DNA of 64,000 nt from Euglena gracilis (Eukaryota): the NCBI GenBank assembly GCA_039621445.1, contig CP154954.1:46045847-46109846 (forward strand), read 5' to 3'. Below, in pieces: positions 33,131-56,045 of the stretch (position 1 is the stretch's first letter; each line of letters starts with the position of its first letter). The position numbers and the translations under genes were made by a program. The notes beneath the pieces are model-generated. The model worked only from the letters and a program-made list of their open reading frames with translations. It was not told where the DNA came from and made no database searches.

Positions 33131-33364
33131 ATGTCCATTGGTGATAAAAGCTTCGTTGTTTTTGCTGCCACCACTGCCTTAGCAGCTGGCGCGTTATTTG
33201 GCCTGGCTCTGAGCCCGTCGGTGGCGTCCAATTATGCCGCCCCCTCCGCCGTTCGTGCATCCACGACAATCTCTGCCGTCCGACCCGTGGTCTTCACAGG
33301 GTCGTACGTCAGTGGAGTCCAAACTGGACGCACCACGGTTGTGGAAGCCACTTCCAACGAGGAG
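33131..33364 (+). CDS. psaD: psaD exon 1: ER signal peptide + Ser/Thr/Ala-rich transit peptide
   Basis: [46 protein letters not shown]...SNEE; donor GT at 33365. Confidence 0.88.
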
Positions 33365-54300: not shown

Positions 54301-56045
54301 AAACGCTGGAAAATTTTAGGTTGCAGGGGGGGGCTCAAAACTGGAGCAGGCCAGTTTTGTGGACCAAAATTTTTGAAAAAATATTTTCGTATTTTCTTTG
54401 AAAACCACATCAAAATGCTCATTTTTTGCATTTTTTTTTGTATTTGCAAAACACCGAACATCCCAAAATGCGCATTTTGCCCCAAAAAATCAGGCAAAAA
54501 TGCGCCTTTTGGATCATTTTCCTGAAGAAATGTTTTAATTTTGGGAACCTGTCTGGACCATGCCATTGCTTAACACGCAATTTTGGGGGCTTCCTTTGGC
54601 CCACAGGTGGCAATTTTAGGTCATGTTTGCGTTTTTAGCCCACCTTGACCAAGCCATTGCCTCCACAGCCAGCGTTGTCAGGGGTTGCCAACATACATTG
54701 TTTGAAGCTGGGATCATACGCCAGCCACCCCATGTTGACCATGTCATTTGCCTGGGTGGGAAACAGCAAGGGCCACAAATTAAAAAAAAATGCTCTCACA
54801 CAACTGGTCTCAGATTTGCCGAAAACCGGCTCTCTTTATGACCATATCCTCTTTTTGTGTGTTTGTTTCTGGTGCTCGTTATTCCCTCCGCTCTAGGCGA
54901 AGGAGATCGCCACACAGTTGCCCACGTTCTGGGAACTTCGGGTTTGTTTCCAGCGCTGCTGTCATGTGGAAACGCAAGTGATGGTGGTTCTATTTTCTTT
55001 GGCTGCCTTGGCTGAGGGGGTTTTTCCCTGTTTGGGTGGGGGAACTCCCAACAAAGGTTTTTTTTTTAAACCAACCTCAGGGGGCGGATGGTGCCAATCA
55101 CAGTGCACTCAGGGGCCCATTGTTTGTGCCAAGGGGTGCCTGCCCAGAGCACGCACACCCAGGGGGGGTTAATTTTGGGACCCGGTGCCTGCTGACCTTA
55201 GGCAATTTCCCCTGCTTGAAAATGGCTTTTTTTTTCTGGGCTCCAGCGTTTTCAGCGCCGGGGGGGGGTCGATATGAGGATAAGGAGGGTGTGCGGGGTT
55301 TGGGGGGGGGGGGTCCGGACCCCCCCACATACCAGGGATTTTGGGCAAAAAAAATATGGGAAAATCACCCATAGTTTTTGTCTCCCGTAGTTTTTGTCCG
55401 CTGTCGGTGGGGAGGGTGGGCTCACCAGCCCTGACATCAAACCCTGCCAGGGGTGTGCTGTTGCACCACCTACCCAAAAGCCCGCCCCACTGCCCACAGC
55501 ACCCACCTCCAGCGGGGATGGGTGCTATGGCGTTTTTCTTTTGTGTTTTTTTGTTTTTTTTTTTTTTTTTTTCTTTTCTTTGGTTTTGTTTTTTTTTTTT
55601 TTTTTTTTTTTTTTTTTATTTTTTTTTTTTTTTTTTTTTTTTTTTTTTTTTTTTTTTATTTTTTTTTTTTTTTTTTTTTTTTTTTTTTTTGCTATGCGTT
55701 TTTTCTTTTAAATGAAGAATGCCTAACCCAGCTGGATTTGTGTTTTCTTTGACTGTTTTGGGTATGCCGACGACCCAAAAGAATGCAGAATTAGACACAT
55801 TCGTTTTACGCGTGCGCCCAGGAATATTTCATTCCAAGGATTTATCCCATATGATTCCCAATGGAAACCAGGATTCGTGCCTCATCCACAGGATGCACTG
55901 TCCGAGGTGCCCAAGTCCAAGTTCCCGGAGGTGTTCGCCAGTTACAAGGGGAGCACTGGCACTCTGCTTGCTGCGGCCGAGAAGGAGGAGAAGTACGTGA
56001 TCACGTGGACCAGCCCCAAGAAGCAGATCTTCGAGCTGCCCACCG
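33131..56045 (+). CDS. psaD: Plastid-targeted PsaD polyprotein (presequence + PsaD unit 1 + linker + unit 2 + linker + partial unit 3), 3'-incomplete. Exons: 33131-33364, 33409-33522, 33574-33613, 33662-33720, 38403-38447, 38497-38650, 41637-41824, 44830-44940, 46219-46264, 47017-47075, 48989-49033, 50235-50388, 51458-51645, 52453-52563, 52799-52844, 52997-53055, 54897-54941, 55892-56045
   Basis: All exons have GT-AG boundaries and join in one frame with no stop. PsaD motifs [45 protein letters not shown] and SIGEN recur in each unit. Exon lengths repeat exactly (59/45/154/188/111/46 nt = 201 codons per unit). Confidence 0.92.
33409..33522 (+). CDS. psaD: psaD exon 2: stop-transfer hydrophobic helix of a euglenid class-I presequence
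   Basis: [38 protein letters not shown], a hydrophobic stretch followed by basic residues; flanking introns of 44 and 51 nt are GT-AG. Confidence 0.88.
33574..33613 (+). CDS. psaD: psaD exon 3: end of presequence ([13 protein letters not shown])
   Basis: AG at 33572-73, GT at 33614; phase 0-1, like the linker exons. Confidence 0.85.
33662..33720 (+). CDS. psaD: PsaD unit 1 N-terminal exon ([20 protein letters not shown])
   Basis: 59 nt; homologous to 47017-47075 and 52997-53055. Confidence 0.88.
35022..35196. mobile_element. MITE with TA TSD
   Basis: TIR CCACCCCC..CATATTGTCCC; empty site GAACCTCGATATGCGAAC present, inverted, near 57563-57580. Confidence 0.8.
38403..38447 (+). CDS. psaD: PsaD unit 1 micro-exon ([15 protein letters not shown])
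   Basis: 45 nt with AG/GT flanks; homologous to 48989-49033 and 54897-54941. Confidence 0.85.
38497..38650 (+). CDS. psaD: PsaD unit 1 exon ([11 protein letters not shown]...IYELPT)
   Basis: 154 nt; GSTGTLL and ITWTSPK motifs. Confidence 0.93.
39109..39515. mobile_element. MITE with TA TSD
   Basis: TIR poly-C-TAGTCGTA(C/T)GACC; empty site TTAATCTAGCTCCAT at ~62770. Confidence 0.8.
40008..40216 (+). repeat. Degenerate interstitial telomere-like (TTAGGG/TCAGGG) array; copies at 63316-63405 and 63738-63780
   Basis: Directly visible. Confidence 0.8.
41637..41824 (+). CDS. psaD: PsaD unit 1 core exon (GGAAEM...[10 protein letters not shown]...[10 protein letters not shown])
   Basis: 188 nt; hallmark PsaD motifs. 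Confidence 0.95.
44830..44940 (+). CDS. psaD: PsaD unit 1 C-terminal exon (VNQGR...[13 protein letters not shown])
   Basis: 111 nt; ends at a GT donor instead of a stop codon. Confidence 0.92.
46219..46264 (+). CDS. psaD: Polyprotein linker exon 1 ([15 protein letters not shown])
   Basis: 46 nt with AG/GT flanks; same peptide as 52799-52844. Confidence 0.88.
47017..47075 (+). CDS. psaD: PsaD unit 2 N-terminal exon ([20 protein letters not shown])
   Basis: 59 nt with AG/GT flanks. Confidence 0.9.
47777..48126. mobile_element. MITE (GGGGTTATAAGT family; relatives near 2245-2342 and 8575-8910)
   Basis: Inverted ends TAACCCCC..CACTTA / TAAGTGGGGGGGTTAA. Confidence 0.55.
48989..49033 (+). CDS. 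psaD: PsaD unit 2 micro-exon ([15 protein letters not shown])
   Basis: 45 nt with AG/GT flanks. Confidence 0.85.
50235..50388 (+). CDS. psaD: PsaD unit 2 exon ([11 protein letters not shown]...IFELPT)
   Basis: 154 nt. Confidence 0.93.
51458..51645 (+). CDS. psaD: PsaD unit 2 core exon
   Basis: 188 nt; [10 protein letters not shown] and [10 protein letters not shown]. Confidence 0.95.
52453..52563 (+). CDS. psaD: PsaD unit 2 C-terminal exon
   Basis: 111 nt; no stop, GT donor at 52564. Confidence 0.92.
52799..52844 (+). CDS. psaD: Polyprotein linker exon 2 ([15 protein letters not shown])
   Basis: 46 nt; differs from linker 1 only at synonymous sites. Confidence 0.88.
52997..53055 (+). CDS. 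psaD: PsaD unit 3 N-terminal exon ([20 protein letters not shown])
   Basis: 59 nt. Confidence 0.9.
54897..54941 (+). CDS. psaD: PsaD unit 3 micro-exon ([15 protein letters not shown])
   Basis: 45 nt. Confidence 0.85.
55545..55690. repeat. Poly-T tract
   Basis: Directly visible. Confidence 0.95.
55892..56045 (+). CDS. psaD: PsaD unit 3 exon ([11 protein letters not shown]...IFELPT)
   Basis: 154 nt; near-identical to the unit 2 exon. Confidence 0.92.

Follow-up and report, generated by a model that had tools for sequence, protein, structure and literature searches.

We describe here a nuclear gene of Euglena gracilis in which units of the photosystem I (PSI) subunit PsaD follow one another behind a single presequence. 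The stretch analysed, called the window below, comprises 64,000 nucleotides of contig CP154954.1 (assembly GCA_039621445.1, positions 46,045,847 to 46,109,846 of the forward strand; all positions given here count from its first letter). It is very probable that the window holds the 5' three quarters of the psaD polyprotein gene, with three units in one frame. One spliced mRNA from the plus strand links the PsaD units behind one presequence, without stops between the units, and its product is presumably cleaved into PsaD monomers. The gene name was taken from the label of P0001, a 698-residue sequence that is the same as PDB 9VFJ chain D and is labelled Photosystem I reaction center subunit II, Euglena gracilis.

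The chain runs through 18 exons from the ATG at 33131 to the donor at 56045. All 17 complete introns have GT and AG ends, and the open 18th starts with GT. The joined exons amount to 1852 nt, or 617 codons, are free of stops, and contain two whole units and the first 101 codons of a third (about 2.5 PsaD units). The exons, all on the plus strand, are as follows.

33131-33364, plus strand: exon 1, start codon, hydrophobic signal-peptide segment at residues 8-27, and the larger part of the transit-peptide-like stretch
33409-33522, plus strand: exon 2, rest of the transit region and, at residues 88-109, the second hydrophobic (stop-transfer) segment, then RKPR
33574-33613, plus strand: exon 3, linker-like, at the border of presequence and unit 1; counterpart of the 46-nt linker exons
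33662-33720, plus strand: exon 4, unit 1 N-terminal extension, first exon, 59 nt like exons 10 and 16
38403-38447, plus strand: exon 5, unit 1 N-terminal extension, second exon, 45 nt
38497-38650, plus strand: exon 6, unit 1 PsaD exon A, 154 nt
41637-41824, plus strand: exon 7, unit 1 PsaD exon B, 188 nt; matches PDB PsaD chains
44830-44940, plus strand: exon 8, unit 1 PsaD exon C, ending in a GT donor, no stop codon
46219-46264, plus strand: exon 9, linker exon, 15 codons and one base
47017-47075, plus strand: exon 10, unit 2 N-terminal extension
48989-49033, plus strand: exon 11, unit 2 N-terminal extension
50235-50388, plus strand: exon 12, unit 2 PsaD exon A
51458-51645, plus strand: exon 13, unit 2 PsaD exon B
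52453-52563, plus strand: exon 14, unit 2 PsaD exon C
52799-52844, plus strand: exon 15, second linker exon; 42 of 46 nt identical to exon 9
52997-53055, plus strand: exon 16, unit 3 N-terminal extension
54897-54941, plus strand: exon 17, unit 3 N-terminal extension
55892-56045, plus strand: exon 18, unit 3 PsaD exon A; phase-1 GT donor, joined in RNA to a B exon outside the window

Six exons form the repeated block, namely a linker exon, two exons for the N-terminal extension and the PsaD exons A, B and C. Their plan is 46/59/45/154/188/111 nt in units 2 and 3 and 40/59/45/154/188/111 nt in unit 1, where exon 3 fills the slot taken by exons 9 and 15. The two linker motifs are spaced by exactly 201 codons, the length of the PsaD repeat, and both C exons in the window end in a GT donor without a stop codon. 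The repetition was also visible in a self-comparison of the window, which found a 140-170-nt segment in four copies (at 38.5, 50.2, 55.9 and 61.6 kb); the open frames around these four copies and around two further repeated segments yield PsaD peptides. Local tblastn distinguished three types of exon: type A occurs four times (38494, 50232, 55889 and 61641), type B twice (about 41.6 and 51.4 kb) and type C also twice (44827 and 52450). The original prediction, made from the letters alone, had proposed this chain from the ATG at 33131 to the donor at 56045, with at least 2.4 tandem units of 201 codons and with C-terminal exons that run through a donor into a linker exon; its ends and its junctions at 44940/46219, 46264/47017 and 52563/52799 proved exact, the repeat is of that length, and both C exons (ending at 44940 and 52563) behave as described.

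The identity of the protein was examined by sequence comparison. The open reading frame (ORF) of exon B matches 82 distinct solved PsaD sequences in PDB, and single exon ORFs do so down to E 2.5e-116. The best match of the exon B frame was 9VFJ chain D, which was matched three times at a spacing of 201 residues. On P0001 itself, the Pfam family PsaD (PF02531) covers three stretches (E 1.4e-193). The window chain and residues 1-601 of P0001 agree at 596 of 601 positions, the five differences all being single substitutions; residues 1-63 map to 33179-33367 in exon 1 (95% identical), and exon 2 is an exact match to residues 63-100. Because single exon ORFs match solved PsaD chains at such values and the chain is nearly identical to P0001, sequence comparison excludes a chance origin of the likeness. 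Moreover, an independent fragment, P0003 (JGI, 217 aa, 93% identical), spans a junction between units: the last part of one unit is followed by the same linker and then by a complete terminal unit. Among 20 candidates from a search with the inter-unit junction (P0001 residues 270-350), only P0003 and P0138 match.

The units are alike to different degrees. Units 1 and 2 share 155 of 201 residues, that is, 22 of the first 50 and 133 of the 151 in the core, and units 2 and 3 share 96 of 101 over the part present. At the DNA level, corresponding exons of units 2 and 3 show 87-97% identity, and their 150-nt intron flanks at most 55-62%. Since the flanking introns have diverged while the exons are alike, either the duplication of the block is old or only the exons were kept alike.

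In the protein databases searched, where euglenid data are thin, P0001 was the only true multi-unit PsaD that we found. A length-matched search returned 18 matches of 383-1222 aa, among which P0001 alone covers more than 24% of the query; 6 of the other 17 were scanned and have one PsaD stretch each. In a representative library of 1.84 billion proteins, 14 of the best 150 matches had at least two stretches, and all of them were 397 aa or shorter. Of these 14, 7 were scanned: 5 carry two Pfam stretches on one domain-sized region and were set aside as probably one domain split by intron read-through, and P0225 has a single stretch. The absence of multi-unit PsaD from this library is weak evidence because P0001 itself is missing there. 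P0147, a PsaD-like protein of 397 aa (43% identical), repeats its C-terminal part at both ends and has an internal, Met-led presequence with two hydrophobic segments. With 1.3 units around its own presequence it was rejected as a polyprotein, and it gives the impression of tandem psaD genes that were read through, or of a circular path in the assembly, from another alga.

Only two strongly hydrophobic segments were found by hydropathy in the first 140 residues of the chain (8-27 and 88-109, with peaks centred at residues 16-20 and 97-101); they are 60 residues apart, and behind the second comes RKPR. Class I presequences of euglenophytes have two transmembrane segments with a spacing of 60 +/- 8 (PMC6242988), and the predicted psaD presequence fits this tripartite class, with a signal peptide, a transit region of about 60 residues and a stop-transfer segment, as had been proposed from the sequence. 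Exons 1-4 occur in one copy only in the window, and no presequence stands before units 2 or 3. What does stand there is the linker, whose residues are identical in both inter-unit gaps and which has A-M and T-G-E-K in common with the RbcS decapeptide (PMC4938576), an unscored likeness. The RbcS linker in turn differs from the printed E. longa NMAAMTGEKD only by a Gly at position 1 (PMC4938576). A motif of the type AM(F/L)AE..GEK is present in both linkers and at the border between presequence and unit 1.

Transcripts were represented by two raw RNA sequencing runs with the same species label (X20 and X24) and by contigs of two runs (X1 and X9), all placed on 41600-61599. All 11 introns from exon 7 to exon 18 are crossed with GT and AG ends, by 156-479 reads each in X20 and 45-366 in X24, and in X24, which is stranded, psaD RNA comes from the plus strand. 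The passage from unit 1 exon C to the linker (44940/46219) was seen in 188 reads of X20, 98 of X24 and one X1 contig; that from the linker to unit 2 (46264/47017) in 209 and 65 reads; that from unit 2 exon C to the next linker (52563/52799) in 178 and 105; and the following junction 52844/52997 in 156 and 54. An X1 contig of depth 731 connects exon C of unit 1, by way of the linker and the extension exons, with exon A of unit 2, and another, of depth 653, connects exon C of unit 2 and the linker with exon A of unit 3. The joints inside the units were seen as well: exon 7 to exon 8 (479 reads in X20, 366 in X24), the unit 2 extension (47075/48989 and 49033/50235), exons 12, 13 and 14 (242, 390 and 178 reads in X20) and exons 16 and 17 (259 and 463 in X20). 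Of exons upstream of the read-covered stretch, the 3' end of exon 4 appears as a loose end before 61548 (127 reads in X24), the 3' end of exon 6 as a loose end before 41634 (347 in X20, 130 in X24), and a loose end at 61595 carries the start of exon 6. Thus, the joins from exon 4 through exons 5 and 6 to exon 7 were also seen, exon 5 being indistinguishable here from the copy 5' described below.

These reads also speak strongly against separate genes. A tandem array of psaD genes, transcribed as one polycistronic RNA and resolved by spliced-leader trans-splicing into one-unit mRNAs, is conceivable in that Euglenozoa use such trans-splicing and that the Met of the linker can serve an ORF caller as a start, as in the 203-aa chain D of 9VJS. 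However, units 1 and 2 are not closed by a stop, translation begun at the linker Met would give a unit without an import signal, no presequence being found before units 2 or 3, and cis-spliced junction reads link the units (98-209 per junction, 65-209 at 46264/47017). Transcripts that end after each unit, or a spliced leader in front of unit 2 or 3, had been named by the original prediction as what would speak against it. No such ends were marked: the intron depth just behind the C exons is about 1, compared with about 90 in exon bins, and no begin or end pile-up lies at the unit ends, the sole listed pile-up being intronic (44061). Among the 24 loose ends listed, none, and hence no strongly supported one, falls on the linker acceptors 46219 or 52799. 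We therefore regard one-unit mRNAs as hardly credible. In contrast, the three junctions proposed for checking are crossed in both runs, and together with the bridging contigs, the single presequence and the stop-free frame they support the extension of the polyprotein strategy to PsaD.

The third unit is only partly inside the window, and its continuation was seen in RNA. Behind the donor of exon 18, reads enter a B exon whose first letters are those of neither B exon in the window (102 reads in X20, 44 loose ends in X24, depth 254.7 in X1), and reads leaving the B exon at 51644 enter a C exon that encodes the start of the terminal unit of P0001 (606 in X20, 437 in X24). Counts of B-to-C junctions for unit 1, unit 2 and the terminal type were 479:390:606 in X20 and 366:289:437 in X24. 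These ratios are roughly 1:1:1 and therefore fit a three-unit mRNA and not a longer hybrid. A five-unit hybrid mRNA as the main form, in which exon 18 would be joined to a unit-1-type B exon, was accordingly rejected, no such joint being present among those listed. Two joints that go back, 55968 to 41634 and 61595 to 55904, were set aside as reads of exons 5, 6 and 7 on look-alike exons, because exons 5 and 6 lie outside the read-covered stretch.

What follows exon 18 in the genome is a diverged duplicate of an earlier part of the gene. Its features are as follows.

56437-63886, plus strand: within the intron that follows exon 18, a diverged second copy of 33864-40548, with most of intron 4, exons 5 and 6 and the beginning of intron 6
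61550-61594 and 61644-61797, plus strand: exons 5' and 6', 100% identical to exons 5 and 6, AG and GT sites intact

The duplicate begins 390 bases after exon 18, extends over at least 7.4 kb and ends about 114 bases from the end of the window, which may cut it off. Its collinear blocks are 87-99% identical, with kilobase-scale insertions and deletions between 58178 and 61187. The acceptors of exons 5' and 6' are in phase 0 and so unsuited to the phase-1 donor of exon 18, and reads do not distinguish these exons from exons 5 and 6.

Several observations weigh against the window being the 5' part of a three-unit gene as read here. At the 5' end, the ATG and the trans-splice site before it were placed from sequence alone, the reads having been placed further downstream, and P0001 is without the first 16 residues of the chain. 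A ~77-kDa precursor and its cleavage sites are likewise predicted. P0001 derives from short-read assemblies, which can miscount repeats; its sequence, the sample sequence of 9VFJ, was taken from transcriptome ORFs (PMC12577709). A further 505 loose ends and 312 joints stand beyond those listed, so that rare spliced-leader addition at the linkers is possible. At the 3' end, tblastn with P0001 residues 603-698 found exons B and C of unit 3 on neither strand of the window, only the exons of units 1 and 2 matching. The variant of exon 18 in the window at 55975/55978 accounts for about 28% of X20 reads, 72% having other letters, and for none of the X1 contigs. And the duplicate of intron 4 and exons 5 and 6 behind exon 18 means that the locus could be a rearranged copy.

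The last of these points leads to the alternative that we take most seriously, although we consider it unlikely: the window would hold a rearranged psaD paralogue or allele with a disrupted 3' end, a deletion or unequal crossover having fused exon A of unit 3 to intron 4 of a neighbouring copy, and most of the canonical three-unit mRNA would stem from a different locus. The near approach and the length of the collinear duplicate, the missing B and C exons, the misfit of phases behind exon 18 and the minority share of its variant would all agree with this, and gene calls from other genomic copies exist (P0138, P0248, P0228). In fact, variation is not confined to exon 18. Position 41748 (N/S), one of the five differences from P0001, is polymorphic in RNA, most reads differing from the window and matching P0001, and at 51497-51498 (F/Y) most reads differ from the window and match unit 3 and the 9VJS sequence. 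Therefore, several expressed psaD alleles or paralogues exist. Nevertheless, all 18 exons and exons 5' and 6' are intact with perfect splice sites, and the window letter at 41748 is the sole one in X1 contigs and is carried by about 32% of X20 reads. Moreover, exons B and C of unit 3 may lie past base 64000, and splicing can pass over a duplicated block within a long intron.

On the other hand, the block 56437-63886 might be an assembly artefact, a mis-join of repeats or haplotypes, with exon 18 in truth adjoining exons B and C of unit 3. The region is indeed rich in homopolymer and short-repeat tracts. Yet the introns of the two copies have diverged by 1-13%, with insertions and deletions on the scale of kilobases, whereas the exons are identical; this has the look of real paralogy and not of a read path collapsed or doubled in assembly. 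A separate gene call, P0228, has the intron variant seen behind exon 6', though possibly from the same source assembly. We judge such an artefact to be improbable. That the duplicated block is part of a very long intron and is skipped in splicing is one of the three readings, and it is the one that goes with the three-unit gene preferred here.

On the preferred reading, psaD would be transcribed and cis-spliced into one mRNA for a class I presequence and three PsaD units, the message running from exon 18 into exons B and C of unit 3 beyond the intragenic duplicated segment. The long T-rich tract that ends in AG at 33124, seven bases before the ATG, would look like a 5' trans-splice acceptor. 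The precursor of about 714 residues (16 upstream of P0001 and its 698) may enter the endoplasmic reticulum (ER) co-translationally and take the ER/Golgi route with the stop-transfer segment as a membrane anchor. After import, it would be cut at the AM(F/L)AE..GEK-type motif, possibly by a stromal thiol protease as in the polyproteins of RbcS and of the light-harvesting complex (LHC) proteins. ER entry, stop-transfer anchoring, import and linker cutting are established for those two groups in Euglena (PMC4938576; PMC6242988; PMC7729029). Cutting at the linkers of PsaD is supported by the resemblance of the linker to the RbcS decapeptide and by the recurrence of AM(F/L)AE at the border between presequence and unit 1. 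Three PsaD monomers of about 190-200 residues each would be released, of which one would be assembled per PSI. Of the four Euglena PSI entries, three give single-unit PsaD sample sequences of 186-203 aa: 203 aa in 9VJS chain D (linker Met to the Phe of the next linker), 193 aa in 9UAS chain D and 186 aa in 9V7T chain D (deduced from density according to its paper). They are consistent with a mature PsaD of about 190-200 residues, in which almost all of the repeat would be retained.

The gene itself has evidently grown through tandem duplication of the six-exon block. Because the N-terminal extension is the main difference between unit 1 and the other two units, we also entertain, as a rather doubtful idea, that one mRNA may deliver two kinds of PsaD at a fixed ratio of 1:2 (unit 1 versus units 2 and 3). 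An extra, Euglena-specific segment of PsaD docks antenna proteins (PMC12965295; PMC13230849; PMC13066549; PMC13076659); it is N-terminal in three of these four accounts and an insertion in the fourth. If there were two kinds, the polyprotein could hard-wire two PSI populations with different antenna attachment, and the duplication behind exon 18 could show such a gene in the course of changing its unit number.

The psaD gene was compared with the Euglena polyproteins already known, which are LHCs, RbcS, cpPGK, EF-Ts and several two-protein fusions (PMC6242988; PMC7729029), a list whose growth was anticipated in PMC6242988. It fits this family in every feature tested, the likeness of the linkers being unscored and the processing presumed. 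The closest resemblance is with RbcS, which in E. gracilis is made as a polyprotein of eight small subunits (Chan et al. 1990, as described in PMC4938576): both have one tripartite presequence, tandem mature units in one ORF, short conserved linkers that look alike in an A-M...T-G-E-K motif, and a stromal-side product, released after import in the case of RbcS and presumably so in that of PsaD. They differ in the number of units (eight versus three in P0001), in the Euglena-specific N-terminal extension of about 50 residues that the PsaD repeat includes, and in the conserved inter-unit stretch, which in PsaD exceeds a decapeptide. The LHCII and LHCI polyproteins (LhcbM, LhcE; Muchhal and Schwartzbach 1992 and Koziol and Durnford 2008, cited in PMC13076659 and PMC12577709) are likewise encoded by nuclear, intron-rich genes with a single presequence; they have up to five units with 10-residue linkers and are processed by a stromal thiol protease (Enomoto et al. 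1997, cited in PMC6242988 and PMC7729029). However, LHCs are membrane antenna proteins with many copies per photosystem, whereas PsaD is a peripheral core subunit with one copy per PSI. The EF-Ts dimer, cpPGK and the two-protein fusions (PMC6242988; PMC7729029) are non-antenna plastid repeats or fusions behind one class I presequence, but EF-Ts and cpPGK have only two units and are not photosystem subunits. Finally, 9VFJ chain D (Kato et al. 2025, PMC12577709) is the same protein, with three PsaD units at 201-residue spacing, and differs in being a transcriptome ORF without gene structure.

A full-text literature search, with most subscription papers and supplements outside its scope, found no description of PsaD as a polyprotein. 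In the available text of the Euglena PSI structure papers (PMC12577709, PMC13076659, PMC12965295, PMC13230849 and PMC13066549), of preprints on LHCE and the plastid proteome, of a transcriptome meta-assembly and of dinoflagellate papers, "polyprotein" refers to LHCs or RbcS throughout. Kato et al. (PMC12577709) treat PsaD as an ordinary nuclear subunit of cyanobacterial origin, its repeats being unmentioned in the parts available. The claim of the original prediction that the case was undescribed at gene level thus agrees with the search, but the three-unit protein was already public as 9VFJ chain D. The PsaD polyprotein is a further case of a known Euglena strategy. PsaD would nonetheless be the first photosystem core subunit known as a Euglena polyprotein, and the strategy would then not be limited to high-copy antenna proteins, Rubisco subunits or a few stromal enzymes. 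Introns, a presequence, an antenna-docking extension and a linker exon must all have been acquired since by a gene assigned to cyanobacterial transfer (PMC12577709), before its triplication as a six-exon block. The main value lies in a first gene model, with linker exon and six-exon repeat block, for a PSI core subunit that the five recent structure papers took to be an ordinary, single protein. The four Euglena PSI entries give four different PsaD sample sequences, of which one is the entire ORF with its three units and another was cut out between a linker Met and the Phe of the next linker; with a gene model, the numbering of residues, the real ends of the mature protein and the unit present in PSI would be settled.

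Other features of the window were noted in passing. A T tract of about 200 nt, interrupted by single A or C, lies at 55504-55728 in the intron just 5' of exon 18, and reads were reported cut there. Degenerate arrays of a 6-nt unit of the GGGTTA/GGGTCA type, similar to telomere repeats, occupy part of intron 6 (39994-40228) and of its duplicate (63299-63418). An Rfam search of 30000-64000 gave no match at gathering score.

Directly upstream of psaD, a run of long, intron-free ORFs occupies the minus strand (27832-33044) and stops about 85 bases before the trans-splice-type acceptor. One of these ORFs (29183-31495, 770 aa, minus strand) matches the reverse transcriptase family RVT_1 (E 1.2e-11), and the run is probably a non-LTR (long terminal repeat) retroelement. 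Near-identical repeats at 20484-21083 and 27216-27813 (98.5%) and, inverted, at 12172-12347 and 19986-20161 (95.5%) are probably parts of retroelement copies. An identical 25-mer is found at 33020-33044 and 15419-15443 (0 expected by chance), and in both places a run of long minus-strand ORFs has its 5' end there. The copy at 33020-33044, the only one inside the stretch searched, had no Rfam match. The complement of this 25-mer looks like the Euglena spliced leader; if it is the leader, the ORF runs would be retro-copied, leader-bearing transcripts or elements.

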